From an uncultured Clostridia bacterium (GTDB taxonomy: Bacteria > Bacillota > Limnochordia > DTU080 > RSA5): a DNA stretch of 64,000 bases. The first letter of the stretch is position 1, and each line of letters starts with the position of its first letter. The notes under the pieces were generated by a model. The model did no database searches, was not told the DNA's origin, and was given only the letters and a program-made list of their open reading frames with translations. Shown here in pieces: positions 7,401 through 51,908 of the stretch. The stretch lies in contig CAYRIY010000006.1 of NCBI GenBank assembly GCA_964424335.1, positions 36 through 64,035 of the forward strand, in the 5' to 3' direction. Both the position numbers and the translations under genes were made by a program.

Positions 7401-8329
7401 ATCTCGTGCGCCATCAGCCGAACGTCGTGATCCGACTCCCCGTGACCGAGCCAGATGTCGCTGCCGTGCGTAAAGGCGCGGGCATTGATCCCAGCAGCGG
7501 CCTCCCGGTCTTGGGGGCCGTCGTGGACGCGCACATGGCCCAAGTCCGCGCCAAACGCTGGCTCGAGTCTGCTCCGCACGCCGGCGTCGAGGGGCCTGCC
7601 TGCGCCGCGGCCCTCGATCGCTCGTGCGGCAATCGCGGCAGGCCCGCCTTCACCGCTTGCTTGGACCGGCTCTTCCTCGTCGAGCCCCTTTGGCTGCACC
7701 GGTTCCTCGTCTTCCGATGACATCGCCTGCACGGGTTCCTCGGCGTCGATGAAGTCCGCCTGTACTTGATCGCTTTCATCGTCGAGCTTGGCCTGGACGG
7801 GCTCCTCGTCCTCCGCGGCGAGGGCCTGCGCCGGACTTCCCGATGCGCCTCCCAGCCCGCCCGGTCCGATCGACGAGATCGCAGGCGCCTCCAGGCCGGA
7901 TGCGACTCGGCCTGCGACCCGATCAGCCTCCCGCTCGTAGCGGTCGCCCGCTTCGCCAATCGTGACTTTGCGCTGCACGCCGCCCGCGAGGGCAACGGCC
8001 GGACCGCCGGCGGACATCAGTCCAAGGCCCGAGCTCCCTGCGTGGGCCAAAACGTGGGGCCCACCGCGTCTCGGCGTCGTGACTCGCCCTTTTGAGCCGG
8101 CCTCCTTGGCGGACTCACCGCCTCTTGCTCGCTTCTTGCTGCCGACCGCGCTGCCCATGGCGCCCCCCTCCTTTCGAAACCGCCCCCATGAACGCCGCGG
8201 GCGAGCGCTCGCGATTTGAGCGCTCCGACTCGCCGTCCAGCGGGCAAAGTCCGCCGTTTTTGCGATACTCAGCGCGAACTGCGGCCTCGAGGCGATCGCT
8301 CGTGATCGGCCCGCGCTCTTCGAGCGCAA
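4454..8329 (-). CDS. eCIS-associated effector candidate: DUF4157 (HExxH zinc-peptidase-like) N-terminal domain plus a large Gly-rich, beta-rich C-terminal region
   Basis: DUF4157 hallmarks GDRYEREADRVA ... LGHVRVH ... AFTHGSDIWLG ... HEMTHVFQQ. Acidic tandem EEPVQ repeats. The listed start overlaps the ATPase gene. The real start is probably internal (M at about 8161 or 8020). Confidence 0.7.
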   Translation of the reverse strand: MRSKSAGRSRAIASRPQFALSIAKTADFARWTASRSAQIASARPRRSWGRFRKEGGAMGSAVGSKKRARGGESAKEAGSKGRVTTPRRGGPHVLAHAGSSGLGLMSAGGPAVALAGGVQRKVTIGEAGDRYEREADRVAGRVASGLEAPAISSIGPGGLGGASGSPAQALAAEDEEPVQAKLDDESDQVQADFIDAEEPVQAMSSEDEEPVQPKGLDEEEPVQASGEGGPAAIAARAIEGRGAGRPLDAGVRSRLEPAFGADLGHVRVHDGPQDREAAAGINARAFTHGSDIWLGHGESDHDVRLMAHEMTHVFQQGAAEQGAAQQSPGGAVQTFSRGAIVQREDADEQGDGGGGEQTDEQEQATDAPAMTEATGVLEGEDITFSQIEVPMFKVSDHRATIYERDLQRARTYTEESRRNTRQREVWQRDLGKETSTVETALQSKYEQAYGAVTPGEPYVFKAPSKYGKNKPLYFIGELPQIAKALTLPQWDRAGEPHSFDVDHVLELQLANWPEDRSWANTVENMELLDSSVNRSSGSVIKQKVEDKVRTFIQATDGRFGDDAATIKRGYNLKFNDPVGGNFGQQPGPNDFWTKEEIKKGDHLGPVAPANLADIGGNGKVRIFPSEAGHGLGKQFSLRNAEGKEAAATSAERDWLSPFVIKSKRFVTEGDDAPSQSSIGSFKVNVKENDDKWQPFPEDKEIPIHRWQGARYAGYIDKAAVRAHLRSMRVKRLSPIRVDYFDVLPEGGLYAIGAILPETPLIGDLDLGFELSGSDFSVYKEFRPGDFNVPAPFVVRDSSLTLAISTERGFVVEGQIDFAIEGAGEGYVRGVANSRGGLHLQGSFSFDTDLFEQAEIDLWYRDDAFGARGTLVIGPRKVRGIRSGRITAEYASGLFSAEGEVAPDIPGIEQGRMSLSFSEQDGLTIGGGFTLSQDVPGIRSGSIDVTVRKGEDGWKVSAEGSAQPDIPGVDTSLSVSYDDGLFTIQGSAEYERGMMKGRVELGVTNRPVDDSGEPSGEPGDTLRAFGGGSVTVRIAPWLQGTVGLRLLENGEIEISGQIGFPDTIELFERLAYEKDILRPPPLDIPIIGVAAAGRRIGIFATIRGGLEAEAGIGPGVLRNVSLGITYNPDHEDQTHVTGSAELHVPASAGLRLYVQGGIGAGIPIVSATAGLEVGGRLGLEGALNTGVNIDWTPAEGLKIDALGELYVQPKFVFNIEAFVNVELDLLLKTITLYERSWELARMEFGSNLRFGVKFPVHYEEGKPFDISLSDVEFIVPDVDVKDLISDLVDAVV
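7651..7816 (-). repeat. in-frame tandem repeats encoding an acidic (D/E)EEPVQ(A/P) linker, at least 4 copies
   Basis: Nucleotide repeats ctgcaccggttcctcgtc / ctgcacgggttcctcggc / ctggacgggctcctcgtc on the + strand. Translation AEDEEPVQA...DAEEPVQA...EDEEPVQP...DEEEPVQA. Confidence 0.7.
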
Positions 8330-17651: not shown

Positions 17652-20548
17652 GCCAGGCGGTCGCGGCCGAGCACCGTTCGCTCACGCACGTTCCACGGGT
17701 GTCCATAGGCGAGGTACTGTTCGCCCAGCGCGCCCTGTCCGACCACGGCCGCGGCCAGCCGACTGCTCCGACCGGGCTGCGTATCGATGCCAAGCCTCGC
17801 CTCACCAACTCGAAACATCGCCCAATACGGCTTGATCTCAAACTCGGTGTGCGCCGGTTTTTCTAAGGATACGACTCGGCGCACCACCTCAGGATCGGGG
17901 CCGACCGCTAGCCTCGCCGAACCGCCCTCTATGCCTGGAGCGTCGACCTCTCCCAAGACCGGTACGAGCACCGTAAACCGGTGCGCCCGCTCGAGCGCCG
18001 GCACGTAGATGGATGCGAAGTGGATCCAGTCGAGTAGCGCTCGCCTGGAAGTGGGCAGGCGCTCCGGCAACGGGACGTCGGCGAATGCGCCGGCGCCGAG
18101 CGAAGCGTAGTAGGGCGACGCTTGAACGAGGGCGCTGACCCGCCGGTAGCGGCGCTCTAGAAATTGCTGGTAAGCGCTGATGTCCGACGCCTCGATCGCG
18201 GCGTACGCAAATCCGATCGCAGAGCGCGTAAACGCCTGCCACGCCTCGGCCTGCGCCGCATCTTCCGGCATGACCGGGGGGAATTCGACCTCGTCGAACG
18301 AAGCGAAGGACGAGTTCCAGGCCTGGTTTAGCCGATTTATGTCGCCAAAGCGGTCCGTCAAAAACTGCCGGTATCGCTTGTGGATCGGGTCGGGACCTTG
18401 GGAGGGGCTCCACGGCACACGGGGCGTGCTCACGCCAGGACCTTCTCGCTCACTTGGATTTCCAAATAAAACGCCGGGCCTCTTGCGGGTGAGAAATTGC
18501 TCCACGATGCGGATGCTGCGAGCGCTTCCGATACATGCGGCCCCGACGCACTCGCCCAAGACCGGCTCGGTAAAGATCGAATCGTCAGGACATGGGTCCG
18601 TGGCGAGCCGGATCGCCCGGACGATGCCCGAAACGGTGCCACGCTCGGCAAACATCCGAGGCGCATGGCGAATCAGCAGGCGCTTGCGACCTTCATCCCA
18701 CGCCTCATCCAAGGCAAGTCCGAGCCAGCCTGCGAGCCACTCGAGCGATTCGGCCGGAGCCGTACGGGGATCAAAAAACACTTGTGCATTTGCGATCCGG
18801 TCCTCGAGCGCTGTGAACACGCCCTCAGGGTTGGCGAGAAACCGCTCGAGAAACGAAGCAGAGCTAGGGTCTTCCCTGTAGACTGCGGGCAAGTACTCCT
18901 CGAGGTACGAAAAGCGTGGATAATACACCCGAACGGCCCTCAACCGGGGCGTCGTCCTCCCATTGCCCGCAAGAGAGATGCGAAGCTGGAGGAAACGTCC
19001 CCGCGCCTTTTGCAACAAGAGCTCCCAAGTCCCTGCGCTCTTTGGCCCTCCGCTTTTTTGATCCAGATACGGACGGTAAAAGGGAATTTCCGCTCCCATC
19101 GGCCGCAAGTACGGGTCAGGCTCTCGCTGCCAGGGCGTCGCCTGTAGCATATGAGCGTCATCCGCCGCTCTGCTTTCGACCGTAATCGACGCTCCGGGGG
19201 GAATCACGGCGTCGAGCATGGCGCGGTGCCACACGCACGCGCGCTCTTTGCCGTCGAATGCAAGGCCTGCAAATCCGCCCGCTTCGAGGGGGACGCCCAC
19301 CACTGGGAGCACGCCCGCAGGCACGAAGCGCTTCCTTGGCTTTTCAGCGAGCTCTACCCAGGCGATCGCGCCTTGCTCAAACCGGTCGTAGTAGACGACT
19401 CCGTCACCCATTGTGCCTAAAGCCGCCACGAGGCCTCGTCCGCCAAAGCTCCTCATCGGCAGGTAACGCATTTCGAGTTCGAGCTCAAGGCCGAGCTCTC
19501 CGGACGGCAAGTCGCGAGCCGGATCGGCGGTGAGGGAGAACGCAAAGGACTGGTTGCCGTCCGCGCCCGTGATGTAGAGCGTGCCTGACGTGCGGCCGGG
19601 TTCAGGCAAGCTGCCCTCTTTTCGCGGAAGAAACGCGAAGTCAAACGCCGTGAACGGCTCGTCCTCAAAGACGCCATGGGGCGCGGCGACGCCATATGGA
19701 CGACTGCCTACGAAACGGCGCACCCGTGCGTCGCCGGCGCCGGCGTCGAGGATCAGCACGGAGCCGTCCGATAGAGCCTCGATCGCGATCGGATTTTCAG
19801 CCTCAAAGGGCGCGGCGTCCTCGAGCGCGATGCCCGTGGGGAAGGTTCTCGCAGGCTTCGGCTGGCGCTCAGGTCCGTCTTCCGGGTGAAAGTGAAACGC
19901 ATGTGCCGGTTCGATTTCGACGCGCTCCTGATCGACGTCGAGCGTTTGGAAATGCCGATCCAACACCCAATACCTCGAATGCTCCCGATCGAGTATGTAC
20001 AGGAGCCCGCCTGGACCTGCCGCCATGTCGTACGGCGCAAAAGGGATTTCGCTTGGCCAATCCATCCAAAGCGGCGGACCGCCCGCATGCAGGTCGAAGA
20101 TGATCAATCCGGCCGGATCGAGGGCGCCCGCGACCAGGTAGCGCTCCTCGGTTACGGCAAGCCCGCGCATCCGTGCAAACTGCGCGGTGGGTGGCGGCGC
20201 CTCGGGCCCAAAATCGCCCGGGCTAGGCGTTTGGAGTTCGGGCTCTTGCCCTGGCCAAAAGAGCTCGGGCCGTGCGAGCCCTGCAGGAAGCATGTAGATC
20301 GCGTCGCCTTCGCCTGAAATCCAGTACCAGTTGCCATGCGGGTCGATGGCCGCTCCATTGCGGCGCTCCAAAGAAGGAGGAACTTCGGAGGGCGACCGCT
20401 CAAATCGAAAGAGCCGACGCGCCAGGATCACGGAGTTCGACGCATCGTCCCAAGCGATGCCCCGATCCGGGCCGCCCGCCTCATGAAGCGCGGGTCGCCA
20501 GTTCGCCTCGCCGATCAGCATGTGAAATCGTGTTTGGTTGGCGTCCAA
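17648..20548 (-). CDS. eCIS baseplate protein (Afp12/Pvc12-like, P2 gpI-like C-terminus)
   Basis: About 960 aa, a size typical of Afp12. The C-terminal region resembles phage tail protein I. It lies immediately downstream of the baseplate J gene and ends in an ATGA overlap with the next gene. Confidence 0.55.
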   Translation of the reverse strand: MDANQTRFHMLIGEANWRPALHEAGGPDRGIAWDDASNSVILARRLFRFERSPSEVPPSLERRNGAAIDPHGNWYWISGEGDAIYMLPAGLARPELFWPGQEPELQTPSPGDFGPEAPPPTAQFARMRGLAVTEERYLVAGALDPAGLIIFDLHAGGPPLWMDWPSEIPFAPYDMAAGPGGLLYILDREHSRYWVLDRHFQTLDVDQERVEIEPAHAFHFHPEDGPERQPKPARTFPTGIALEDAAPFEAENPIAIEALSDGSVLILDAGAGDARVRRFVGSRPYGVAAPHGVFEDEPFTAFDFAFLPRKEGSLPEPGRTSGTLYITGADGNQSFAFSLTADPARDLPSGELGLELELEMRYLPMRSFGGRGLVAALGTMGDGVVYYDRFEQGAIAWVELAEKPRKRFVPAGVLPVVGVPLEAGGFAGLAFDGKERACVWHRAMLDAVIPPGASITVESRAADDAHMLQATPWQREPDPYLRPMGAEIPFYRPYLDQKSGGPKSAGTWELLLQKARGRFLQLRISLAGNGRTTPRLRAVRVYYPRFSYLEEYLPAVYREDPSSASFLERFLANPEGVFTALEDRIANAQVFFDPRTAPAESLEWLAGWLGLALDEAWDEGRKRLLIRHAPRMFAERGTVSGIVRAIRLATDPCPDDSIFTEPVLGECVGAACIGSARSIRIVEQFLTRKRPGVLFGNPSEREGPGVSTPRVPWSPSQGPDPIHKRYRQFLTDRFGDINRLNQAWNSSFASFDEVEFPPVMPEDAAQAEAWQAFTRSAIGFAYAAIEASDISAYQQFLERRYRRVSALVQASPYYASLGAGAFADVPLPERLPTSRRALLDWIHFASIYVPALERAHRFTVLVPVLGEVDAPGIEGGSARLAVGPDPEVVRRVVSLEKPAHTEFEIKPYWAMFRVGEARLGIDTQPGRSSRLAAAVVGQGALGEQYLAYGHPWNVRERTVLGRDRLA

Positions 20549-20607: not shown

Positions 20608-22824
20608 TCAGCACTCGTCCGGCACCACCGGAACCGGGATCAATGAGCTCGAAGCGCCGTCCGGATCGGGCGCGCCGCCGAGGAGTCGCTCCGGCAGCTC
20701 CGGCTCCCCTTGGGCTACGCCGACTTTGAGAAGGCGCGGAAGTTCGAGACCTGAGATCGAGACTTCCTCGACGCTGACGCCGCTCGCGTCGATCAACAGG
20801 AGTTCGTTAACGAACGCGACGCCATCGACCCGCGCCGCCTCCGCCCACAGTTCCTTTGCAATCACGGCCCTGCCTCGGGGCCAGCCTTCGCCTTCCCTCC
20901 CGCCGTACAATGGCGAGAGAAACCGCTTGAGCGCCTTTGCAACGGCGTCGCGAACAGGAGGAAAGTCTCGGCCGGCCGCTGTTTCGATTCCCACCGACAC
21001 GTGGACCGGCTTGTACTTTGGACCGCGAACGTGCACCTCGGTCGTGACGAGGCGGCGCGGCTCGATGTGCCGGCAAATCGCATCGAGGAAAAGATTGTCG
21101 GGAACCGGAGCGTCCGGCTGGAGCCGGTCGACTTTGGGAATCGCAAGGAGCGTAACCACGCCGGGCATCACGATATCCGGCAGGTCCGGGTGAAAGGTCG
21201 GCAAAACCTCGAGGCGGCCGATGTCCACCCCGGGCGTCCGCAGCGCCACTTCTTCAAAATCGTTCAACGAGACCAATCGGTCCTTGTGGCGAATAAACGC
21301 GGGGATATTTCGCTCAGCCTCATCGACCGTCTCTGCGTCGTCCCCGCCCCAGGTCGGCAGGGGGTTTGTCACTTTGACCCCGCTTGGAAGCGCCGGCGCT
21401 TTGCTGATGGCCCCGATCCCGAGATTGCCGGCCTGACCGCCCCCGTAGGCGTAGCTCACCCGGATCACGGTTCCCAACGGAGGCCGTGCGCCTCGCAGGC
21501 CGTCTCCGAAGCGAATCACGCCTGCCTCAGGGTCGAGCGTAAAGACATTGGACGGCGCATCCTTGGCGCTCGTCCGAACATGGGGCAGGATGCCTTCGGT
21601 CTGGGGGACCTCGGGTCCCGCCGCAAATAAGTCGTCGATTTGTTCCCAGGCGACGCCGTCTACCGTAAGGCGCACCGAACCGGAAATCACGGGCTTATGT
21701 ACGAGACTCACCGCCTGGTCGGGCTCGCCCGTCCCCCGCCCTGCAATCTCCGATACCACGTTTGTCTGCTGAACCACCCTGGCCGCATTGATGCCGACCC
21801 AGCCGATGCGCGCCCGACCTCCGCCTCGCGTCTTGCGGTCGGACAGCCGGATCCTGATCCATGTCACGATCCGGTCTTCTTCAGCGTCGTCCTCGAGCGA
21901 TGGCGGAAAGTCGCCGGTCCCCTTGGTGAGCGGCTCCGTAATCTCCCACATGTTGAGCTGATCGGCCCCGGGGAGGCGAAGTTTCACCACGCCCGGCGCG
22001 CCAAGGACGTCTGCATCGGATTCGGCTTGGAGCCTGTCGTACAGTGGGGCGCCCGTAGCCGGGTCGACTTTGTCGGTTGCAATTTCAAATACAAGGGATG
22101 TGCGTAAACCGGCCGTCGAAGCGCCGACAGGGTGCAGCGTGCGCCCCTCCTCCTCAACCTCCGGCAGCACGCCAAGACTCAAAACCCGTCCTGCGATCAC
22201 GGGACGAGCGTCGCCGGGCGTCTCCCTGGGCCGTGCAAGAAGCGCTACCCATAGGGAGTCGTCCACCGTATCGGACGCTAGGTCGACAACGGAGTACGAG
22301 GAAGCGTCGACCGGCGGTTCGAGCGGGGTGGTCTCGTAAAACGCGAGGTTGTCTGCGGCGTCGGCGCCGCCGTAGAGTTTGGCGTAAAGGCTGCGCACTT
22401 CTGCCTGCCGCTCTTCTGAGAGCGTGCGCTTGTAATACACCTTCGCCTCCACGGGCAAGACGTCGAGCGCGTCTTGCGTGCGAAACGGGAGCTGTCCGGC
22501 GAGGACTTCCAGATCGGCCGCGAGCGTCAGCGACTCTAGACTGCCGCGCACGTTGGCAAACGTCACGATGCCCCGCGCCGGAGTCGCCGGCTGCATCGGC
22601 ACACCGAGCAGCGAGAGGAACTTTCGCCTGTTTCGCTCAGGGATCTGATTGCTCCGATAGAGCAGGTTTTCCGTCATGAAAGCAAAGAGCTCGAGCAGGG
22701 TGACACCCGGGTCGCTCTCGTTGAAGTTGGTCCATTCCGGGTTGTACACCCGGATGCGGGCGAGCGCGTCGTTTAGGATTTCTCTGTAGGACCGGTCGTC
22801 AATCTTGGGAATCTCGATCGGCAT
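20608..22824 (-). CDS. baseplate J-like protein (Afp11/gp6-like)
   Basis: N-terminus IPKIDDRSYREILNDALARIRVYNPEWTNFNESDPGVTLLELFAFMTENLLYRSNQIPERNRRKFLSLLG matches the conserved N-terminus of the eCIS baseplate J family. Confidence 0.75.
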   Translation of the reverse strand: MPIEIPKIDDRSYREILNDALARIRVYNPEWTNFNESDPGVTLLELFAFMTENLLYRSNQIPERNRRKFLSLLGVPMQPATPARGIVTFANVRGSLESLTLAADLEVLAGQLPFRTQDALDVLPVEAKVYYKRTLSEERQAEVRSLYAKLYGGADAADNLAFYETTPLEPPVDASSYSVVDLASDTVDDSLWVALLARPRETPGDARPVIAGRVLSLGVLPEVEEEGRTLHPVGASTAGLRTSLVFEIATDKVDPATGAPLYDRLQAESDADVLGAPGVVKLRLPGADQLNMWEITEPLTKGTGDFPPSLEDDAEEDRIVTWIRIRLSDRKTRGGGRARIGWVGINAARVVQQTNVVSEIAGRGTGEPDQAVSLVHKPVISGSVRLTVDGVAWEQIDDLFAAGPEVPQTEGILPHVRTSAKDAPSNVFTLDPEAGVIRFGDGLRGARPPLGTVIRVSYAYGGGQAGNLGIGAISKAPALPSGVKVTNPLPTWGGDDAETVDEAERNIPAFIRHKDRLVSLNDFEEVALRTPGVDIGRLEVLPTFHPDLPDIVMPGVVTLLAIPKVDRLQPDAPVPDNLFLDAICRHIEPRRLVTTEVHVRGPKYKPVHVSVGIETAAGRDFPPVRDAVAKALKRFLSPLYGGREGEGWPRGRAVIAKELWAEAARVDGVAFVNELLLIDASGVSVEEVSISGLELPRLLKVGVAQGEPELPERLLGGAPDPDGASSSLIPVPVVPDEC

Positions 22825-22830: not shown

Positions 22831-23301
22831 TCACTCCCCTCCAAGGCGCACTAAGACCGAAGCGCTCTCTTGGCGTCCGTCGCTCACGAGCCGGTAGTGG
22901 ATCGTTACATGTGCGATCGCGGGGTCGTGTGGGTCCGCCTCCACCGCCACCCCGTCGAGGCGGATGCGCGGCTCCCACATGGCGAGGGATTGCGTGACGC
23001 GCTCCTCGATCAACCTCCGGGTCGACGCTGTGTTCGGTTCGAAGAGAAAGCGCCGTAAGCCCCCGCCAAACGAGGGCAACATCAAGCGCTCACCGGCCTC
23101 GGTCGATAAGATCACGCGAATCGACTCCCGAATGTTCTGCGGCCCCTCCGACCAGGCCATTCGCCCGTCCTCGCCAAGCCGTGGCGGAAAGGATATGCCC
23201 TTGCTTTTAGGTCTCGTGATCGCCATGTCGCTGGTTCCTTTCAATCCGTCCCTAGTCAGCCGTACCCTAGTCAGCCGTAGCTCCCTATCGGCGCCCGTCA
23301 C
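22831..23301 (-). CDS. baseplate wedge protein gp25/GPW-like (Afp9)
   Basis: IRESIRVILSTEAGERLMLPSFGGGLRRFLFEPNT...LAMWEPRI is the typical GPW_gp25 signature. Confidence 0.8.
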   Translation of the reverse strand: MTGADRELRLTRVRLTRDGLKGTSDMAITRPKSKGISFPPRLGEDGRMAWSEGPQNIRESIRVILSTEAGERLMLPSFGGGLRRFLFEPNTASTRRLIEERVTQSLAMWEPRIRLDGVAVEADPHDPAIAHVTIHYRLVSDGRQESASVLVRLGGE

Positions 23302-23331: not shown

Positions 23332-25050
23332 CTAACGGCGAATCGGGAAGCAAATCTTACAAAACGGCAGCCACCAAAAGACGAAGTTGAGCGCTTGCAA
23401 AATGATCAAGAGCAAGATCATGGCGCAGATCGTGATGATCGGAATCGACAAGGTGCAAACCATTCCCAAGTCAAAGCTGCGCCCGGGACCCGGCCCTTCT
23501 TCGAGTTCGCTGAAATTTAAGCCCCGGAGCCGCTCCATCTGGCTGCGAAGCTGTTTGGATGCAAAGAACGACACGTCGCGCTTAAACTTTCTGAGGCCCG
23601 ACACGCTCGTATCGATCGGAAGCGAGATCCGGACCGGACGAGTCGGGGCGTCCGGGTCGAAAAACGAAGCGATTTGAAAGGGTCGAGACGCTTCGCTCAC
23701 GAGCGGCGGGTGCAGGTCCATGCAGTGCGGTCGCTCGTAAACGCATCGAATGACGTAGTGCGCCCCGGCGTCTGCGTCCATCATCGGGAGTGTGGGAACG
23801 CTCGAGGCGCCGGATGGATCGGGGGGCGGTTCATAAGGGCCGAGCGTCGGGACGACCGCCTCGAATTGCCCGCGCAATGCGTCGATCTTGCCTTTGGTAA
23901 CCACGCTTGGATCGATCGTGAACGACTCCGCGTTTGGATCGCCTGCAAGCAGCGCTTCACGGTCGTTCCAGACGGCGACGAGCGCTTCGGCCCAGGTCGT
24001 TTCAGAAACGCCGATTCGTTCGGTTAGCAATCGATCTGCGAGGAGCTCCACGGGGCCCGAGGGCGACTCGAGGCCGCCCGAGTTCCAATCGCTTTCCACG
24101 ATCGCCCACACCGGCGCGAAGTGGTCGTGTAAGAGCTCTGCCAAGTCGTACAGGATGAACGTCGACGCCTCGGCGGCCTCGGCCTCCGATGTCGATGCGC
24201 GCAGGAGATTTCGTAAGGAACGCTCGACCCGCGACTCGAACTGCGCGATACGGGGATCCACCTCACCAGGGACGGATCCTGGGTCGACATAGGGGCTCGC
24301 CGATCCCTTCGCCTCATAACTCTCCCTGCTCGACACCGGAATGAGGCCGGCGAGCACACGCCGTTTTTGTCCGTCCATGTCAAAGAACACGCCAAAGAGC
24401 GGGTGACGCTCTTCGGATGATCCGTCGAACGACCCGAGGCGACCGGCATCCGCAAGGGGCCGCCAGCCAAGTTCGGAGCCAGCCCACGCCTCCTCGACGT
24501 AGGTTGCGGGATCTGCCGGGTCCACCTCGCCCTGTGCGTTTTTCGGCGCAAGGCGGCGCAGGACAAAAGACGCGCTCTCCTCCTTGGCCGGATCGATCGT
24601 GCGGCAGGGCAGTCCCGGGATGCGGCACACGAGGTCGGCCGCCACCAAGTAGTAGCGCTTGTGCGCCGGTTGGAAGAGCTTATAGGCCATCTGGCTCCAC
24701 CGGACATCGTTTGACGGCAGCCAACCTGCACGCTCGTCCCTCCACGTCTCGGGCTGCGCGACGTACTCGGGCAGCCTCTCGGGCGAACGTTCCAACAGCG
24801 CAAGCAGGTCATCCATAAACTCGTCTCGATCGAAACGGAGCACGATGGGGCGAAAGAGGGCGGCGGCATCGGAGTCGGAAAGCGCCCGGTCCCAGATCGG
24901 GGCGGGGGCGCGCCACTCGGGGACGTGCTCCACGTTGCGCAATCGGTTTTGGCGCGCAAGTGCGCCAACTGAATGCCTCTTGACAGAGGGCGTCCCGTTT
25001 CGATGGCCCGATTTGACGGTGGCCGCTGGTACGGCCCGCATCATTACCAT
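23332..25050 (-). CDS. hypothetical eCIS protein with a C-terminal transmembrane/tail-anchor segment
   Basis: Soluble 520 aa with no recognised motif, then a terminal hydrophobic stretch LSIPIITICAMILLLIILQALNFVFWWLPF. Sits between gpV and gp25 and overlaps the gpV stop. Confidence 0.4.
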   Translation of the reverse strand: MVMMRAVPAATVKSGHRNGTPSVKRHSVGALARQNRLRNVEHVPEWRAPAPIWDRALSDSDAAALFRPIVLRFDRDEFMDDLLALLERSPERLPEYVAQPETWRDERAGWLPSNDVRWSQMAYKLFQPAHKRYYLVAADLVCRIPGLPCRTIDPAKEESASFVLRRLAPKNAQGEVDPADPATYVEEAWAGSELGWRPLADAGRLGSFDGSSEERHPLFGVFFDMDGQKRRVLAGLIPVSSRESYEAKGSASPYVDPGSVPGEVDPRIAQFESRVERSLRNLLRASTSEAEAAEASTFILYDLAELLHDHFAPVWAIVESDWNSGGLESPSGPVELLADRLLTERIGVSETTWAEALVAVWNDREALLAGDPNAESFTIDPSVVTKGKIDALRGQFEAVVPTLGPYEPPPDPSGASSVPTLPMMDADAGAHYVIRCVYERPHCMDLHPPLVSEASRPFQIASFFDPDAPTRPVRISLPIDTSVSGLRKFKRDVSFFASKQLRSQMERLRGLNFSELEEGPGPGRSFDLGMVCTLSIPIITICAMILLLIILQALNFVFWWLPFCKICFPIRR

Positions 25051-25778
25051 ACGTTTCCTGCCCCCGGGGTGTAGCTTGCGCTCACCACTGAGTTGGCGAT
25101 CAAGGTGGGCGCCTGGACGACGCCGCTAAAACGGGACATGCCGGCATTTACGGTCAGCATGCCCGCCGTCACCTCGACCGTGGCCCCGGCGTTGATCGTG
25201 ACCTTTGCCGTCGCGTTTACCGTAATGCCGCCCGTATCCATCGTCACGCTGTTTCCATTGCTATCCCGCACCTCGATCGATCCGGGTCCGTCTTGCAAAA
25301 CGATCGTTTGGCCGCCCGGCGTCTCCAACACGAGCGACTCCTGACCGTCCGTGTCGTCAAAGGTCACCTTGACGCCGTTGCGGGTCGTGATGCTCTTGAT
25401 CGAGTTAAGCCCCGCGGCGTCCATCGACTCAGGGGGATTGTCTCGGCCGTTCCACAGGGCGCCTACCACGTAAGGCCTCCTCGGGTCGCCGGCCTCAAAC
25501 GAGACCAGCACTTCGTCGTCGATGTCGGGAATGAACCAACTGCCGCGGTCGGCCCCGGCCATCATCGTCGCAAGGCGCGCCCAGACCTCATAAGCGCTCC
25601 CCTTTGTATCCGGAGACCAAGGGAGGCGCACTTTGACACGGCCAAGCCCCTCGGGGTCCGCGATGTCGCTCACGAGCGCTGAGTACACACCGTAAAACCG
25701 CCCGCCGTAACCGACAGGCGCCCTCTCGTTTAGTTCCGTCGTCAGCGTCGTCTGCAAACCGCTCACACTCCCAACCAC
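25044..25778 (-). CDS. spike protein, phage baseplate assembly protein V / gp5-like (C-terminal half of VgrG)
   Basis: GVYSALVSDIADPEGLGRVKVRLPW...WARLATMMAGADRGSWFIPDIDDEVLVSFEAGDPRRPYVVGALWN matches the gpV/Gp5 OB-fold signature. A Gly-rich beta-helix tail follows. Confidence 0.8.
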   Translation of the reverse strand: MVGSVSGLQTTLTTELNERAPVGYGGRFYGVYSALVSDIADPEGLGRVKVRLPWSPDTKGSAYEVWARLATMMAGADRGSWFIPDIDDEVLVSFEAGDPRRPYVVGALWNGRDNPPESMDAAGLNSIKSITTRNGVKVTFDDTDGQESLVLETPGGQTIVLQDGPGSIEVRDSNGNSVTMDTGGITVNATAKVTINAGATVEVTAGMLTVNAGMSRFSGVVQAPTLIANSVVSASYTPGAGNVW

Positions 25779-26848
25779 GGGCGTTCCACGCGAAACTCCG
25801 TGCGATACCCTTGAGCCTCGTCAAATAAATGCCGCGCCTCGACCACGTCGTATGCTCCGTTAAAGATCGGGTCGAGACCCGATAGGACGACTTTGGATCC
25901 CACCGTCAATCTGCCGTCGCCTTCGGATGTCCCGCGCCCCGTCACAAATCGCCGGGCCGCACGTCGGTAGTAAGCCTCCGCGATCGCTCTCGCCTCTTGG
26001 TCGCTCTCCGGAGCATGGTGTACGATCTGCTCGGCACGCTCACCAAAGGCTTGTCTGAGCAGCGGGCCCCCTGCGACCTCGCCTTGGAGATCAGATCGTA
26101 TCGCCGCATCGTCGACCCGCACATCGATCGGCTCCTTCGCGGCAACGTCCCACCCGGAGACCGTTACCGACGTCCTCTGACCGGCGAGGTCCGCCAAGAC
26201 CGAAAACTCACGAAGTCGCTGACCGTACGTGAGCGCAATCTCCGATCCCTCGCGCCGCCCGCGAGACGCTACGCGCAACTCCTCGCCTTTTACCCAAACC
26301 TCAGCGTCGATCGCTCGTGCTCGTTCCCGCAAAAACGCAAGGTCGCTCTGGTTTACCTGGGTGATGGCCTTGTGCGTAACAGAAGCGTCGACGTCGATCC
26401 TTGGCGTGAGATTGTGATCGCTCGCCACTTGACGAAAGATCGCCTCGTCCGTCACGTCTTCGAACGACCGGGTCCGGCGGGTCATCCGCAGGTCTTGTAG
26501 CCGGTCCTCTGCGAGGACGGTCAACTCAGGGGGCCTGGTTTGAGGAAACCGCCCTTCCAATCCCATAATCCGACCCTCGAACACCGTGGCAGCCGTCTCG
26601 CCCACGCCCATGCGGACCTCGAGCGCCTTGCCGAAATCGAGGAGGCGGCGATCCAAGTAGAGGTAGCCGACTTCGCCTCCCTTGGCGCCCCAGTTGCCAA
26701 GCGTGATTTCGCACCGGTACAGCCCCGCCGTCGTCTCCTCGACCATGAGTGAGAGAACCCCGTCGGCAAGCTCGGGTTGGTCCGCCCCGTCAACCAGGAG
26801 GACGGGCCGGGCCGAGTAAAAGGCGGGCGTGCTCGGGAGTGCGCTCAT
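25763..26848 (-). CDS. phage late control gene D-like hub protein (N-terminal half of VgrG, gp27-like)
   Basis: gpD-family layout. The position is immediately upstream of gpV with an overlapping stop/start. Confidence 0.75.
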   Translation of the reverse strand: MSALPSTPAFYSARPVLLVDGADQPELADGVLSLMVEETTAGLYRCEITLGNWGAKGGEVGYLYLDRRLLDFGKALEVRMGVGETAATVFEGRIMGLEGRFPQTRPPELTVLAEDRLQDLRMTRRTRSFEDVTDEAIFRQVASDHNLTPRIDVDASVTHKAITQVNQSDLAFLRERARAIDAEVWVKGEELRVASRGRREGSEIALTYGQRLREFSVLADLAGQRTSVTVSGWDVAAKEPIDVRVDDAAIRSDLQGEVAGGPLLRQAFGERAEQIVHHAPESDQEARAIAEAYYRRAARRFVTGRGTSEGDGRLTVGSKVVLSGLDPIFNGAYDVVEARHLFDEAQGYRTEFRVERPWLGV

Positions 26849-26854: not shown

Positions 26855-27025
26855 TTAGTGCGCCTCGACCCGCGCCAAACGCTCGGCTCGCTGGCGCAGA
26901 ATTTCTGCGATATCCCTGGGCGATACGCCGACCGATGGACTGCCATTGGCGGGCTGTCCCCTTTCCAAAGAGCCTTGCGGCGCATCGTCCGCGATCACTT
27001 CAAATTCGTTGATGATGACTGCCAT
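26855..27025 (-). CDS. small ORF (56 aa) not in the ORF track, possible Afp6-like small eCIS component
   Basis: ATG at 27025 with GGAGGAG 8 nt upstream. Translates to MAVIINEFEVIADDAPQGSLERGQPANGSPSVGVSPRDIAEILRQRAERLARVEAH. Its stop lies 6 nt before the gpD ATG. Confidence 0.4.
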   Translation of the reverse strand: MAVIINEFEVIADDAPQGSLERGQPANGSPSVGVSPRDIAEILRQRAERLARVEAH

Positions 27026-36346: not shown

Positions 36347-36934
36347 ATGAAAGGCAGCAGCTTTACGCGAGGAAGGGGGACGCACGAGGTGGCCCAACGT
36401 GCCTTGGGACATGAGATTCTCGACTGGCTTCGCACGATTGTGATCGGAGGGGCATGCGCGGCCTTCGTGATCTTGTTTATCGCCCAATCTTACGTCGTCG
36501 AAGGCTCTTCGATGGATCCCAACATGCGCGATCGAGATCGCTTGCTGGTAGAGAAGGTCAGTTATCGGTTGCATGAGCCCCGTCGAGGCGATGTCGTCGT
36601 CTTTCGCACCGAAAGCGAAGCGTTGATCAAGCGCGTCATCGCCGTCCCCGGCGACACGGTCCTCATCAAGGATCACGGCGTGTACGTCAACGGGATCCGA
36701 CTCGAAGAGGACTACCTCAATGACCGAATGATCGCCTACAGGCAGATCGGTCCGCTCACCGTACCCGAAGACCAGTATTATGTGCTGGGCGACAACCGAA
36801 ACGTCAGCAGGGACAGCCGCGATCCGACGCTCGGATTGGTCAAGGCAGAGACCATCGTTGGGCGAGCCCTTGTTCGTTACTGGCCCTTGACCCGAGTCGG
36901 CATCATCCAGGCCTTCCGCCCCTACGGGGAGTGA
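36347..36934 (+). CDS. lepB: signal peptidase I
   Basis: S26 boxes VEGSSMDP, RGDVVVF, IKRVIAVPGD, YYVLGDNRNVSRDSR. Confidence 0.85.
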   Translation: MKGSSFTRGRGTHEVAQRALGHEILDWLRTIVIGGACAAFVILFIAQSYVVEGSSMDPNMRDRDRLLVEKVSYRLHEPRRGDVVVFRTESEALIKRVIAVPGDTVLIKDHGVYVNGIRLEEDYLNDRMIAYRQIGPLTVPEDQYYVLGDNRNVSRDSRDPTLGLVKAETIVGRALVRYWPLTRVGIIQAFRPYGE

Positions 36935-38084
36935 CCGCATCGCTTGGCCGATGCTCACGGCGTGTGCCGCACGATTTGCGGATCACGAGGTGGGTCTCCA
37001 GCACCACGCCCTTTGAGGCTCCGCCGCCGGATCCGATCAACTCGAGGAGGAGAGCGGTCGCTCTGCGACCTATCTCCTCTTTTTGCTGCGCCACCGTCGT
37101 GAGCGGCACGTCGATGCGATCGGCAATGTCGATGTCGTCAAATCCGATCACCGCCATCTCCTCCGGAACGTGGACGCCCATCGTTCGGCACGCAGCAATG
37201 ACGTCGAGCGCGACGAGGTCGTTCACGGCAAACACCGCGGTGACTCCAAGGTCGAGGAGCGTCGTCGCAAGGCCGCGATAGGCCTCATGAGCAGATTTTT
37301 CATCCATCCTGGATATTTGGGGAACAAAAACGTATAGGCTCGAGTCGTACGACAGCCCTTTTCGTTCGAACGCCTCCCGGTACCCGGCAAATCGATCCCA
37401 GACCGTATGGACGCTGAGCGGGCTCCCCGCGGCAAAAGCGATCCGCTCATGACCGTGATCGATCAAGTGCATGACCGCCTCCGCCGCCCCCTTTTGGTTG
37501 TCGGAGATCACATACGACACGTCGCTCCGCTGTAGGCGTCGGTCCATCGTGACGCACGGGATCCCATTGAGCAAGAGCGCGTCTAGTCCGGGCAGGACGA
37601 CGACTTCGTCCGTCGGAAAGATGAGCAGCCCACTGAGGCCCACGCCCGCGAGTTCCGCGATCACCTCCGCTTCCCGCCTCGCGTCGGCCCTCGAGCTTCG
37701 AAAGACAAGCTCAAACCCGCTTGCGGTCGCCGCCTGCTCCACACCTCGGATCACGTCCGAAAGGAAGTGGTCGGTGACGTACGGCACGACCAGCCCGATC
37801 AGTCCGGCGTTGACGTCCTTGGCTCCCTGTTTTTCGCCTCGATTTCTTCCCCGGCCGATGCGCACAAACGTCCCCCGGCCCCGAAGCCGCTCCACAAACC
37901 CGCTTCGTTCCAGGTCGGCGAGGGCTTGGCGCACCGTGTGACGACTCACGAAAAACTGCTCGGAAAGCTGATGCTCAGAAGGGATGAGTTCGCCGTCCGA
38001 TAGCCGCCCAGCCTCGATGTCCGATCGGAGCCGGCGACTCAATTGAATGTATAATGGAATTCCACCGCGAGGATCCAGCCTCAT
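36903..38084 (-). CDS. GntR-family HTH transcriptional regulator with a periplasmic-binding-protein (LacI-type) sugar-binding domain
   Basis: N-terminus IPLYIQLSRRLRSDIEAGRL...LIPSEHQLSEQFFVSRHTVRQALADL (GntR HTH), then a PBP1-type fold (LIGLVVPYVTDHF..., AVNDLVALDVIAACR). Confidence 0.75.
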   Translation of the reverse strand: MRLDPRGGIPLYIQLSRRLRSDIEAGRLSDGELIPSEHQLSEQFFVSRHTVRQALADLERSGFVERLRGRGTFVRIGRGRNRGEKQGAKDVNAGLIGLVVPYVTDHFLSDVIRGVEQAATASGFELVFRSSRADARREAEVIAELAGVGLSGLLIFPTDEVVVLPGLDALLLNGIPCVTMDRRLQRSDVSYVISDNQKGAAEAVMHLIDHGHERIAFAAGSPLSVHTVWDRFAGYREAFERKGLSYDSSLYVFVPQISRMDEKSAHEAYRGLATTLLDLGVTAVFAVNDLVALDVIAACRTMGVHVPEEMAVIGFDDIDIADRIDVPLTTVAQQKEEIGRRATALLLELIGSGGGASKGVVLETHLVIRKSCGTRREHRPSDAVTPRRGGRPG

Positions 38085-38451: not shown

Positions 38452-39747
38452 TTGTCATCATTGCGAAATCGATTCATCGGGTTTACACTCATCGCACTGT
38501 TGATCGCGTTCGGTTCGGTAGTCGCCTTTGCGGCCCCCGTCGAGATCAGCTACTGGGGCGTCTGGGGCGGAGAGCCCGCCCAATCGATTGAAAACGACGT
38601 CATCAATGCGTTCAACGAAGCATTCGAAGGCCGGTACCGGGTCGTCGGCAGCCCCGCGGTCTCCCCTGAGCAGCTCACCACGGCCGTCATCGGGGGCGCT
38701 CCGCCGGACGTCGTCAAGGTCGACCGGTTTGAGGTAGGCTCGTACGCCTCTGCAAACGTCATCACCCCGCTCGACGACCTGATCGCCAGGGACGGATTTT
38801 CGCTTGCCGAGTATTACCCCGCCACGAGTGATGAGGCATTCTACCAGGGCCAAACCTACGCCATTCCCTGGAATACGGACAACCGCGCCCTCTACTACAA
38901 CATCAGCATGTTTGCAGAGGCGGGTCTCGATCCCAACGCGCCGCCCACTACGTGGGAACAAGTCGATGAGTACGCTCGCGTGCTCGACCGGTGGAATCCC
39001 GACGGGACCCTTGCCCAAGGCGGGTTTGTTCCCCACTGGGGCAACTGGTACTTCCTCGGCTGGCTCTGGGCCGCCGGCGGCGAAGTGCTTAGCGAAGACA
39101 ACCGCACCGTCGCGTGGAACGGCCCTGAGGGCCACAGAGCGATCAACTGGATGAAGGAAGCGCTCGACAAGTACGGCGGCGCCCCCGAGCTCGACGCCTG
39201 GAGCGGCTCGGTCACCAACGGCGCATTTTACGGTGGTCGCCTCGGCATGATGATGGACGGTTCCTGGGCCCTTGGCCACATCAAGAACATCGGCATGGAG
39301 GGCCAGTTTGGCGTCGCCAACCCGCCGCGGCCTGCCGGTCTTGAACACGAGCCGATCACCTGGTCCGGCGGATTTGCCCTGGCAATTCCGGTCGGGGTAA
39401 GCGAAGAGAAGCGTCGCGGCGCGTGGGAGTTCATCAAGTTCTACACGAGCCACTGGGCGCAAACGCAGCTTGGATCGCGCAGCGGACAGATCCCGGCGCT
39501 GCGTTCGGCCGCCACGTCTGAGGAGTTCATGAGCATCGACCCGCTCATCTACAAGTTCGTCGACCTCATGTCCTACAGCCGCTTCCGCCCTGTCATCCCG
39601 GCGGGCACACAAATGTGGCGGATCTACGTCGACCAGGTCCACTCGCTATTGACCGGCGGAGACACGCCGCCTGAGCAGATCATGTTGCAGACTGCCGAAA
39701 ATGGTCAGCAAGCCCTAGACGAGGGCTGGATGCGAGCAGGGCTGTAA
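38452..39747 (+). CDS. ABC transporter extracellular solute-binding protein (family 1, sugar)
   Basis: Signal/anchor sequence, then a typical SBP_bac_1 layout (YQGQTYAIPWNTD..., GGFALAIP). Confidence 0.85.
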   Translation: MSSLRNRFIGFTLIALLIAFGSVVAFAAPVEISYWGVWGGEPAQSIENDVINAFNEAFEGRYRVVGSPAVSPEQLTTAVIGGAPPDVVKVDRFEVGSYASANVITPLDDLIARDGFSLAEYYPATSDEAFYQGQTYAIPWNTDNRALYYNISMFAEAGLDPNAPPTTWEQVDEYARVLDRWNPDGTLAQGGFVPHWGNWYFLGWLWAAGGEVLSEDNRTVAWNGPEGHRAINWMKEALDKYGGAPELDAWSGSVTNGAFYGGRLGMMMDGSWALGHIKNIGMEGQFGVANPPRPAGLEHEPITWSGGFALAIPVGVSEEKRRGAWEFIKFYTSHWAQTQLGSRSGQIPALRSAATSEEFMSIDPLIYKFVDLMSYSRFRPVIPAGTQMWRIYVDQVHSLLTGGDTPPEQIMLQTAENGQQALDEGWMRAGL

Positions 39748-39781
39748 AAACAATTACAGTCAGATGCGATCGATTGAGGGC

Positions 39782-39818
39782 GGTCCCGGGCGTCGATGCC
39801 CGGGACCGCAGTTTTTAC
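39782..39818 (+). terminator. intrinsic terminator
   Basis: GGTCCCGGGC-gtcgat-GCCCGGGACC followed by GCAGTTTTTAC, directly after the SBP gene. Confidence 0.55.
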
Positions 39819-39860
39819 ATTGCGCCCTAACCTATAATCCCTCGTTTGCCAAGATCCACT

Positions 39861-41222
39861 CTATGCCGCCTGCGCCGCCTCGCCAGGCGCCTCGTGGCGC
39901 GCACTCGCCTGCCGCCACACGACGACGGATTCGATCGCCTCTCCGAGGCAGTAGACGAAGGCGCCCACGACCGCTGCGTCCCAAGGAAACAGGGCTGAAG
40001 CCGGTCCAAACGCAATGTAGATCGCCACTGCAACGGTGGCTAAGTTTGCCACTTTGGCGTACCCGATGATCGACGTGCGCCGCCGGAGCATGAGCATGCC
40101 CCAATACGCCTCTCGCCAAGCGGCCACGGCCGGCTGTATAGCGAAGACGGTGATCGTTTGCAAGGCGATCTCCCCTACGAGTTCCGGAATCCCCATAAGG
40201 GTCATGACGACGAAGCGACCGACAGGACTCTGTGCGAATAGGAGCATGAGCGTCCCGATCACAAACCCCGTAGCGATCGAGAAGTTCCGCACCCGGCGCC
40301 AGTTCGGGTCGCTCGCATCCTTTACAAAGACCAGTGTGCATTGGTGGACCATCGACGTTCCACCGGCGAGCAAGACGAGAAGTCCAAGCGCGACGCCATA
40401 GGCGGCGAGCGAAATCGTAGGCGACGCGCTCTTTCCGACACCGCTTTGGATCAGCGGGTGCATCCACCCGGCAATCCAGATCATGACCGCGAGCGGCGCA
40501 AAGAAGCGGGCAATCACAGGCAATGCCACGGGTTCGTCGCCCTTTCTTGGAATCGCGTGCGCCGCGCGGGTAAGCGACCCAAATCTCTTGATGAGGTACG
40601 CGCCCAAGAAGCTTCCCTCGATGCCAAGTCCCAAGACCCACGCAATCGAGCCGACGATGAGGCCGGGCAAAGAGCCCGTGATGAGGAAGATTCCAAGGAA
40701 GAGCATGACGGCGACCGTCCGCACCGCAAGGCCGACGGGCATCATCGCGGCGCCCCGATGGCTGATGGCGAGCCCATGCACGATATTGCGGAACGTCTCC
40801 ACAATGGGAAGCAAAAAGACGATGAACAAGCCGCGCGAGGCGAGCGAGAGCTCTTCGCCGGACGAGAGTCCCACGCGTCCGAGCGCCCAAGCCCCGAGGG
40901 GCGTGAACGCCATAATGAGCAAAACCGCCACGAAACAGGCCGTCATGCCCCATACAAATCTCAACACATTTCCAAAGCTATCTTTGCCGTCGACCAAAGC
41001 CACGACCATCTGCCTCACGGTGTTGGTCGGGGCCTTGACGGCGTTGACGAGCGCTTGGAGAACTGCGTACGCGGCGAGATTCACTTCGGGGGCGGGTAGC
41101 CGGGCCAAGGTGGCGCTTGTCAGCGTGTGTGAGATTGCGATCATGAAGGGCGTGACGCCTAGGGGAATAAAAAAGCGGGCAATTTGACCGTAAGTGACCG
41201 GCCTTTCCGACGATGGCCGCAA
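39861..41222 (-). CDS. polytopic membrane transporter, MATE/MOP-superfamily-like
   Basis: About 12 predicted hydrophobic helices across 453 aa. The other-frame ORF 39832..40953 is considered spurious. Confidence 0.45.
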   Translation of the reverse strand: MRPSSERPVTYGQIARFFIPLGVTPFMIAISHTLTSATLARLPAPEVNLAAYAVLQALVNAVKAPTNTVRQMVVALVDGKDSFGNVLRFVWGMTACFVAVLLIMAFTPLGAWALGRVGLSSGEELSLASRGLFIVFLLPIVETFRNIVHGLAISHRGAAMMPVGLAVRTVAVMLFLGIFLITGSLPGLIVGSIAWVLGLGIEGSFLGAYLIKRFGSLTRAAHAIPRKGDEPVALPVIARFFAPLAVMIWIAGWMHPLIQSGVGKSASPTISLAAYGVALGLLVLLAGGTSMVHQCTLVFVKDASDPNWRRVRNFSIATGFVIGTLMLLFAQSPVGRFVVMTLMGIPELVGEIALQTITVFAIQPAVAAWREAYWGMLMLRRRTSIIGYAKVANLATVAVAIYIAFGPASALFPWDAAVVGAFVYCLGEAIESVVVWRQASARHEAPGEAAQAA

Positions 41223-41428
41223 CGCAGGATCCCTCTTTAGACTGGGTGATATCAGACAGAGGGGTATTCAAGTCGACAGCCCGCACTCCCTGTCAGTTGC
41301 CCGTGGGACGCCCAAATTCGCCTGATCCGAGCAACTGCGGCATGTACCTCCATCGATTTCAGAGGAAGATCGCACTTTATACGGAAATTTGCCATTAGTC
41401 ACACTACACTTGACTGGGGGATGTACAC

Positions 41429-42724: not shown

Positions 42725-42823
42725 CTTCTAGCGCCGAGTTGCGACGCACATCCCGTCGCCCGACTCGATTTTCGGGGCGCTTCGGATCGGCATCTCCCGC
42801 CTGGTCCGAGGCGTCCCGGCCGC

Positions 42824-44188: not shown

Positions 44189-44395
44189 CTTAACAATTCA
44201 CCTCGAAATATCCGTTGCACACTTTTCCTTCGGATGACGATCCGCAGCTTTTTGGGGATTCTCGCAATTCTCCATCGGGCTTGAGCGGAGAATGCAGGCC
44301 GACCGCCTTCATCATCGTATGTTATTCACTGCGGATTCGTTCGACCAAGAAGTTTGCGGCGCCAGGAGAATCAAACTCAAGGGAGAGTGTCACGC

Positions 44396-46207: not shown

Positions 46208-46589
46208 GCTTCTTTGTCCACTCCTTACAAAAAACCGATTGGCTGCGGTCCCCACTTGCCGCCCACTAGGGCCAGCGACGCTGGCCCGCTAGGATTTTCA
46301 TCCGCTCGTGGCTTGGCCTGGCCGACAAGGTCGGGCGGCCAAGTGGGTGACGCCTTTGTCCGATGGGGCAAAGGCGACTTCACCTCCCTATTCGTCCTTT
46401 CGGCTGAAGTCCTGCCTTGCAAGTATGTTTGCATACGTGCTTCAGGGGCGTTCGGTCGATTCGACCGTGCCAGGCGAGCGGCCAAAGCCGGGACCGCCAC
46501 GTTGAGGTTGACAACGGCAGCGCCTCGTGCTAGGATTTAATCCAAACTCATCCACAAATTGATGGTCAAAGGTTATGAAAGGGACCAGT

Positions 46590-51904: not shown

Positions 51905-51908
51905 ATAT

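Follow-up and report, generated by a model that had tools for sequence, protein, structure and literature searches.

We analysed a stretch of 64,000 nucleotides from an uncultured Clostridia bacterium (GTDB lineage Bacteria; Bacillota; Limnochordia; DTU080; RSA5; GenBank assembly GCA_964424335.1, contig CAYRIY010000006.1, positions 36 to 64,035). This whole stretch is called the window below, and coordinates refer to it. Pfam matches of its proteins revealed a long operon of roughly 24 genes on the minus strand, which encodes a contractile injection system (CIS). The gene under study encodes a predicted 572-aa membrane protein, a putative core subunit of the spike/baseplate module of this CIS, hereafter the transmembrane (TM) protein. 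Its open reading frame (ORF) starts with an ATG and runs from 25050 to 23332 on the minus strand, stop codon included. A preliminary description of this DNA, made from the letters and their translations, had located this ORF; the ORF is real, and only the strand had to be corrected to minus.

The gene preceding it encodes the gp5-like half of a split VgrG spike, with OB fold and beta-helix (25044-25778, minus strand; Phage_base_V, 6e-27). The gene directly downstream encodes a gp25-like baseplate wedge protein (22831-23301, minus strand; GPW_gp25, 4e-23). This is the placement between gpV and gp25 that the preliminary description had given, and its claim of translational coupling to gpV was borne out as well. 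The start of the TM-protein gene overlaps the stop codon of the spike gene (gtATGGTAAtga, with ATGGTAA as the overlap) and is preceded by AGGAA. The same 7-nt overlap recurs at loci L002 and L004. A start codon lies no more than 10 nt from the spike-gene stop in 81% of 74 loci, and a gp25 start no more than 10 nt from the TM-protein stop in 78% of loci, both figures being biased somewhat upward by our choosing the nearest start.

The TM protein carries a conserved hydrophobic element at residues 529-569 (23344..23466, minus strand). It consists of a TM core at about residues 531-554, N555, and an aromatic and proline-containing segment (IVFWWLPFCKICFP). The element has a KD19 of 2.78, and the membrane-spanning part of its core covers about 21 residues (531-551). 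A simple position-independent sum on the Hessa scale was -3.4 kcal/mol for residues 531-551, and the best segment elsewhere in the protein gave +11.5. A Kyte-Doolittle scan found no other strong hydrophobic segment among the 24 operon proteins. The preliminary description had quoted a 30-residue hydrophobic segment followed by a basic C-terminus. This segment, LSIPIITICAMILLLIILQALNFVFWWLPF, is present at residues 534-563 and is followed by CKICFPIRR; its length has to be revised, the full conserved element being about 41 residues and its core about 21. The short basic C-terminus comprises residues 570-572 (IRR) and the stop codon (23332..23343, minus strand, by translation).

The hydrophobic tail followed by a basic end is not a chance feature. 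It was found in 241 of the 243 family members, and the two exceptions end prematurely. The segment is thus not missing in orthologs, a point on which the earlier proposal had been made to depend, and it is the best-conserved region of the family. W560 is invariant, and S535, I538, A543, F558, C532 and C567 are more than 98% conserved, followed by G529, I536, P537, T540, L547, P562 and P569 with more than 90%. The mean column entropy of residues 529-569 is 1.01 bits, the lowest of the protein (2.0-2.8 bits in folded domains). The conservation within the TM segment showed no significant helical periodicity (Fourier test, permutation p=0.45), and the idea of a heptad pattern or one conserved face was dropped at this p value. 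A second strongly hydrophobic segment was present in just one member.

The family fits the tail-anchored class of membrane proteins. No member of the 243 has a signal-peptide-like N-terminus, with no hydrophobic h-region in the first 45 aa, and 241 of them combine the absence of a signal peptide with a single TM segment near the C-terminus and a short tail. Across the family, 17-32 aa follow a 20-residue core, with a mean net charge of +2.4. The 15-residue flank on the N-terminal side of the TM has a mean net charge of -1.4. A C-terminal sorting signal (PEP-CTERM, MYXO-CTERM, LPXTG and similar) was discarded, as no NCBIfam model matched and none of the 243 members has a signal peptide. A holin was rejected as well.

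Position 555, at the end of the TM core, is N in 141 members and D in 98. D555 co-occurs with a basic residue at 559 (R, K or H), N555 with K or R at 565 (Fisher test, 1e-49 and 1e-41, not corrected for phylogeny), an association that probably reflects two clades. Two states of the segment after the TM can be distinguished: in one, N555 is combined with W559 and K/R565; in the other, D555 comes with R/K/H559, and residue 565 is hydrophobic. This second state is found mostly in long-form proteins.

The family is large and widely distributed. A word-indexed search returned 104 relatives of the TM protein, all annotated as hypothetical and none with Pfam domains, and repeating it with the alignment as query brought up no candidates beyond these. 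A profile search over 1.84 billion representatives retrieved 1,777 clusters (50% identity), of which 933 lie below 1e-30. Scanning one genome per species, we found a relative in at least 522 species. Carriers include Myxococcus, Corallococcus, Pyxidicoccus, Sorangium, Chloroflexota, Ktedonobacteraceae, Acidobacteriota, Rhodothermales, Salinibacter, Chromatiaceae, Methylococcales, Deinococcota, Actinomycetota, Verrucomicrobiota, Gemmatales and others. The closest relatives with a named organism are metagenome-assembled genomes of Symbiobacteriaceae. The TM protein itself, searched also against NCBIfam and PHROGs, matched no Pfam family at E<=0.01, no NCBIfam model and no PHROG. The family profile gave only a chance match to PDB sequences (E=0.07). 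No paper on this family or its membrane anchor was found in our literature search.

The position of the gene is conserved together with the protein. Around four distant homologs, the order is CIS_tube, a 52-56-aa ORF, GPD, base_V, the TM-protein gene, gp25 and J. The same order was recovered at 84 of 84 loci by tblastn with the window proteins, and these loci have no space for a further gene between spike, TM-protein gene, gp25 and J. In the synteny check that the preliminary description had proposed, the spike gene is followed directly by the TM-protein gene at 101 of 101 loci from many phyla, and gp25 and J follow directly at 99 of 101. With this fixed position at all loci and the overlapping or abutting starts and stops, the gene behaves as a core structural gene and not as cargo. 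The cargo alternative of the preliminary description is disfavoured, since the gene is invariant and positionally fixed and the operon has a separate effector candidate with an eCIS_core/DUF4157 domain. A phage origin was also examined and rejected; all 17 'viral' contigs of IMG/VR that carry the gene turned out to hold this CIS cluster, with the cap gene at its start.

Family members range from about 490 to 1,050 aa, and the variation comes from domain insertions, not from helical repeats. The insertions fall in the helical domain described below and bring the protein to 1,052 aa in P0103 and P0244. The long members of 975, 1,052 and 789 aa, considered as possible Rosetta-stone fusions, turned out to be insertions or a tandem duplication, with no fusion to spike, gp25 or PAAR. 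In the 789-aa protein (P0032, metagenomic) the soluble part occurs twice in tandem and the terminal TM is missing; its gene call may be truncated or frameshifted.

The structure of the TM protein was predicted with AlphaFold2 from a 70-sequence alignment (mean pLDDT 84.3, pTM 0.63). Residues 1-40 (24931..25050, minus strand) form a basic N-terminal extension that is predicted to be disordered (pLDDT 36-53). This extension has 13% occupancy in the alignment and is shared with the closest relatives P0002 and P0004 only. Residues 41-460 (23671..24930, minus strand) make up the folded soluble part, with pLDDT mostly above 90. It is modelled as two domains, one beta-rich (about residues 44-236, joined again by strand 431-439, YVIRCVYER) and one helical (about 239-403). 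H130, C142, C436 and C443 are invariant or nearly so and lie on or near strands that are probably paired; they might bind a metal or form a disulfide.

The folded part is followed by a highly conserved segment at residues 461-510 (23521..23670, minus strand; entropy 1.36 bits), FFDPDAPxRPVRIxLPxDTSxxGLRKF.... This segment is poorly folded in the monomer model (pLDDT 45-87, little secondary structure), and it could serve as the docking site of another CIS subunit. A variable acidic linker at residues 511-528 (23467..23520, minus strand; entropy 2.58 bits), modelled with low confidence, then leads to the TM element. Long-form homologs have about 25 extra residues in the linker region. AlphaFold2 models residues 528-567 as one long helix. 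Foldseek searches of the model against PDB and BFVD gave nothing at E<=0.001; the highest-ranking entries, among them rotavirus VP5*, colicins and diphtheria toxin, had probabilities of at most 0.09 and were disregarded. The AlphaFold check named in the preliminary description, with a PAAR fold as the contrary outcome, thus returned a confidently predicted fold with neither a PAAR fold nor a PAAR motif. None of our results pointed to a soluble baseplate component, the other contrary outcome it had named. The TM protein appears to represent a new protein family, with a predicted fold that has no Foldseek counterpart in PDB or BFVD.

The preliminary description had noted that a PAAR or tip protein would be expected at this position, and our results agree. 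The gp5-like spike is closest in PDB to AlgoCIS (7aef_q, 9e-30), All3320 of the thylakoid-anchored CIS (tCIS; 8e-26) and the Streptomyces spike (9gtr_q, 1.5e-18). [quoted passage not shown] The self-tipped gpV of phage P2 gave only E=0.6 with the window spike. The spike is therefore related to the PAAR-capped VgrG type and not to P2 gpV, and a tip protein is expected. PAAR_motif (PF05488) had no match in any protein scanned from the window operon, and the 84 loci contain no spare ORF at the canonical positions, both results holding within the CIS cluster. No recognisable PAAR motif was seen in the TM protein either, as described before.

This gene content resembles that of a known subtype. According to Chen et al. 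(2019), IIb is the only subtype of extracellular CIS (eCIS) without afp10/PAAR; it further has afp8 in split form, one afp11, divergent versions of afp12/13, afp6 and 2-3 conserved genes that lack known domains (PMC6899500). In the window, Afp8/VgrG is split into a gp27-like (25763-26848) and a gp5-like (25044-25778) ORF, and the cluster has no Afp10/PAAR gene. Its Afp11-13 content is one Baseplate_J match, one Tail_P2_I match and two CIS13_fam matches far below the cut-off. By gene-content features alone, the locus is subtype-IIb-like and would belong to lineage II. The closest solved sheaths are those of the membrane-bound haloarchaeal CIS (9ezm, 1e-109) and of the cytoplasmic CIS of Streptomyces (8bky, 1e-108; 8bl4, 3e-105), and the window Cis11 matches solely the Streptomyces protein 9gtp (3e-56). 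We found no characterised member of subtype IIb in the literature search.

The explanation we favour, with about even confidence, is that the TM protein is a core adaptor by which the spike/baseplate hub is held at the cytoplasmic membrane of the producer. Lacking a signal peptide, it would be synthesised in the cytoplasm, its gene being translationally coupled in one block with those of the gp5-like spike and gp25. The soluble part of about 470 residues, probably including residues 461-510, would dock on the spike/baseplate hub, and the flexible acidic linker would lead to the C-terminal TM helix in the membrane, most plausibly the cytoplasmic membrane of the producer. The baseplate would then be tied to the membrane spike side first, and firing could be either membrane-bound, as in T6SS and tCIS, or membrane-triggered, as for CisA. 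In the operon, the TM protein would fill the niche held by PAAR in other subtypes. The docking place, the topology with the N-terminus inside, the stoichiometry and the membrane entered are all inferred. We favour the adaptor because the protein is laid out like a tether, its folded domain being followed by the conserved unstructured segment, the variable and acidic linker, the TM and a short tail, and because it lacks a signal peptide, is encoded in the coupled block and is the sole membrane protein of the operon.

Divergent homologs at two actinobacterial-type loci bear on this question. The homologs at L100 (9683-11524) and L101 (9683-11266) retain a homologous TM (hhalign probability 98.9%, E=3e-17), carry about 100 extra residues after it and end in a common DPLC motif; they are the exception to the tail-anchored pattern. 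A moderately hydrophobic stretch right after their TM might cross the membrane a second time. At these two loci, gp25 is preceded by an inserted DUF4157 effector gene; at L101 the insert between the TM-protein gene and gp25 encodes a DUF4157 protein of 1,474 aa that has hydrophobic segments. Co-translational insertion by Sec/YidC in the producer would suit a TM with a soluble domain behind it, and for such a protein it is difficult to envisage spontaneous, unaided entry into a foreign membrane. This arrangement supports an adaptor in the producer membrane.

Several observations weigh against the adaptor. Docking on the spike/baseplate is deduced from gene order alone. The acidic N-terminal flank (-1.4) and the basic C-terminal side (+2.4) contradict the positive-inside rule for an anchor with the N-terminus inside and the C-terminus outside. 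The tail is the most conserved region, which would not be needed of a generic anchor, and the lack of helical periodicity (p=0.45) leaves a single packing face unsupported. The hydrophobic element of about 41 residues exceeds one pass of the bilayer. Cis13-like fibre proteins are encoded at the locus, and in classical eCIS such proteins serve extracellular targeting. Finally, the imaged lineage-II CISs of Chloroflexota and Deinococcota (clusters of Roseiflexus, Calidithermus and Deinococcus, which may or may not carry the TM-protein gene) were unattached in the cytoplasm (PMC12998442).

Some of the same observations would be accounted for if the TM protein were a membrane-inserting spike tip, an explanation we consider unlikely. 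The soluble part would cap the blunt end of the VgrG-type beta-helix instead of PAAR, and the particle would bear the hydrophobic helix. When the system fires, this helix would enter the target-cell membrane and open or stabilise the puncture, or form a pore. The spike of a PAAR-accepting type in an operon without PAAR (PMC6899500) fits this proposal, as does the gene directly after the spike gene, overlapping its stop codon. The TM protein resembles the PAAR tips Afp10, Pvc10 and Cis10 in its spike neighbourhood and in being present where PAAR is missing, next to a VgrG-type spike; it differs from them in lacking PAAR_motif and the small conical beta-fold, in being five times larger and in spanning a membrane. 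The acidic flank and basic tail would be in keeping with a C-terminus that goes first when an energised membrane is entered from the outside. The sequence-specific conservation of the helix would suit an active role in the membrane, the helical domain, variable and prone to insertions, could be an exposed surface facing the target, and Cis13-like fibres are present. However, a helix of about -3 kcal/mol without an obvious shield would enter the producer's membrane first, and a TM on a variable, flexible linker is unlike a rigid piercing device. The 100 or so residues after the TM at L100 and L101 could not cross a target membrane unaided, and no fold likeness to PAAR or any solved spike-tip protein was found.

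A bolder form of the membrane adaptor can be formulated, which we regard as a speculative possibility. Subtype IIb CISs, which occur in hundreds of species from Myxococcota to Chloroflexota, Acidobacteriota and Actinomycetota, would be a distinct cell-anchored class in which a single protein makes up the whole 'membrane complex'. This protein would cap the VgrG-type spike in the place of PAAR, its oligomeric and sequence-specific TM helix would hold the spike tip in the cytoplasmic membrane, and the spike would then be driven through this helix.

The TM protein was also compared with membrane proteins of other contractile systems. TssL, a DotU-like protein of the T6SS, has a cytoplasmic domain and a single C-terminal TM helix without signal peptide, and is thus C-tail-anchored; it links the baseplate of a contractile tail to the producer's inner membrane. 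The TM protein shares with TssL the arrangement of a soluble domain and a single C-terminal TM without signal peptide. In contrast to TssL, it has no DotU Pfam match and no sequence or fold match in PDB, its soluble part of about 470 aa has another fold, and its gene lies between spike and gp25. The window operon, which is eCIS-like, also differs from the T6SS in lacking TssJ, TssM and TssK.

The gene of CisA, a membrane protein of the cytoplasmic CIS of Streptomyces coelicolor, lies at the edge of its cluster. CisA is a single-pass protein with a cytoplasmic N-terminus and a proposed link between a lineage-II CIS and the membrane (PMC12237407). Its N-terminal part is largely disordered, its TM lies in the middle of the protein, and its C-terminal domain is folded and extracytoplasmic (PMC12237407). 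Both proteins are cluster-encoded, conserved and single-pass, and the window sheath and Cis11 are near the Streptomyces ones. By contrast, the TM protein has a folded N-terminal part, a TM at the extreme C-terminus with a tail of about 3-15 aa, and a gene inside the spike/baseplate block. This comparison with CisA was made by description.

The CisA precedent raises another explanation, in which the TM protein is a membrane-located assembly factor or firing trigger outside the finished particle. It would nucleate the assembly of the hub or baseplate on the membrane or, in the manner of CisA, bring free particles there under stress only. CisA is cluster-encoded, conserved, needed for firing and absent from the purified CIS structure (PMC12237407). 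The unattached lineage-II CISs in intact Chloroflexota and Deinococcota cells (PMC12998442), whose clusters may or may not carry the gene, would suit such a role. The L100 and L101 relatives also have a CisA-like layout of cytoplasmic N-terminal part, TM and C-terminal domain. On the other hand, the coupling inside the block from V to W and the spike-adjacent position at 101 of 101 loci point to stoichiometric co-assembly. In addition, CisA has a disordered N-terminal part and a gene at the cluster edge, whereas the TM protein is well folded. We think this role quite unlikely.

Two further membrane proteins of CISs were considered. In the tCIS of Anabaena, a C-terminal helix of Cis13 penetrates a membrane of the producer and positions the particle, and deletion of this helix frees the particles (PMC8894136). 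Like Cis13, the TM protein is a protein of the CIS structural module with a C-terminal membrane helix. [quoted passage not shown] Hbor_38620 is the putative anchor of a haloarchaeal membrane-bound CIS of clade IIa, with six TM helices, a cytoplasmic domain of about 150 aa and a gene upstream of the core cluster (PMC11566945). Both are cluster-associated membrane proteins; the presence of Hbor_38620 correlates with a membrane-bound mode of action, and the window sheath is closest to that system (9ezm). The TM protein differs from Hbor_38620 by its one TM, its large soluble part and its gene inside the core. It is unrelated in sequence or fold to the known CIS membrane adaptors, with CisA set apart by description. 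By analogy, the precedents of Hbor_38620, CisA and Cis13, cluster-encoded membrane proteins that decide or predict the mode of action, would favour the adaptor.

It is also conceivable that the helix stays outside any membrane, buried in the tube lumen, the spike cavity or the Cis11 cage, as a plug or a substitute for the tape measure. Afp14 is absent from lineage II (PMC6899500), the all-round conservation without periodicity could reflect a setting enclosed by protein, and the operon has no other membrane protein to partner with. These points are set against the folded domain of about 45 kDa, which is unlike an extended tape measure and by its estimated size would not fit the tube lumen, and against the length variation of about 490-1,050 aa by domain insertions instead of helical repeats. 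The textbook TM hydrophobicity, aromatic belt and basic end also speak for a membrane, and we hold a buried helix to be very improbable. A tape measure protein as such was rejected in view of the globular beta/alpha fold and the length changes by domain insertions.

The remaining genes of the CIS operon, all on the minus strand, are given here in operon order. A Pvc16_N cap gene is the first (35398-36015, Pfam), followed by the contractile sheath Cis2 (32473-34401, sheath domains) and a gp19-type tube protein (31713-32213, Pfam). Then comes a second sheath-like protein of 1,067 aa (28464-31667), with sheath domains only in its last 270 or so residues. Its roughly 800 N-terminal residues have no domain assignment, the gene is kept at all loci, and the L003 homolog has a TIG domain. 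A second gp19 tube protein lies between this gene and CIS_tube (27224-28030). A 56-aa ORF (26855-27025) is located between CIS_tube and GPD. It belongs to a conserved family of small proteins with the N-terminal motif M[ASP]VVINEFEVV, a low-complexity middle rich in P, A and G, and the C-terminal motif ER..RVRAH, found in the same slot in most of 70 loci. No Pfam or PHROG match was obtained for it, and it may be an Afp6/Cis6-like spike plug. The gp27-like half of the split spike/hub (25763-26848) reached 29.6 bits with Phage_GPD (cut-off 30.1), and its position is kept at all loci.

Downstream of gp25 are a Baseplate J/Cis11-like protein (20608-22824; Baseplate_J, 7e-10; Streptomyces Cis11 9gtp_1K, 3e-56) and a Tail_P2_I/Cis12-like protein of 966 aa (17648-20548), which has a short Glyco_hydro_42 match at residues 722-778 (7.5e-8). 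Two proteins in the fibre position (12701-15496 and 15531-17651) have weakly CIS13-like N-termini, their CIS13_fam matches of 47 and 20 bits being far under the curated cut-off of 370. At the C-terminus of the 931-aa one are helix-hairpin-helix/DUF4332-like motifs (HHH_5, 1e-8), not a usual feature of tail fibres, and the same combination occurs at L004. A 755-aa protein without identified function stands between the CIS13-like genes and an AAA ATPase (8115-10328). The 1,291-aa protein that follows (4454-8329) has eCIS_core (DUF4157) at residues 246-318 (7e-23) and no TM segment, and is likely a cargo or effector of the window CIS.

Just downstream of the cluster (1056-4401, minus strand) are a family-2 glycosyltransferase and a TPR protein. 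A similar pairing is found downstream at L003 (18309-19424), and its association with the CIS may recur. A GntR/LacI-type regulator lies directly upstream of the cluster (36903-38084). Outside the cluster, the window has four SBP_bac_1 ABC-type solute-binding proteins, a YheC/D ATP-grasp protein and a sulfatase (38452-58183), and its GC content is 62%. Judged by the Symbiobacteriaceae relatives of the TM protein, the host may be a Bacillota-like organism of high GC content.

The action of a CIS depends on its location, which can be released, membrane-bound, thylakoid-bound or free in the cytoplasm. In recent work, cluster-encoded membrane proteins such as Cis13, CisA and Hbor_38620 have been the best predictor of this location. 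Membrane adaptors of CISs were thus known already; what is new here is the position in the spike module, the subtype, for which no characterised member was found, and the wide spread. One of the unnamed subtype-specific IIb genes of Chen et al. (2019) is identified as that of an invariant, predicted membrane-spanning core subunit encoded next to the spike. Carriers that can be cultivated include Myxococcus, Corallococcus, Sorangium, Roseithermus, Halochromatium and Nocardioides. Our results suggest that a whole class of CIS works while attached to a membrane, and they provide a testable prediction of the mode of action for a very widespread CIS class.

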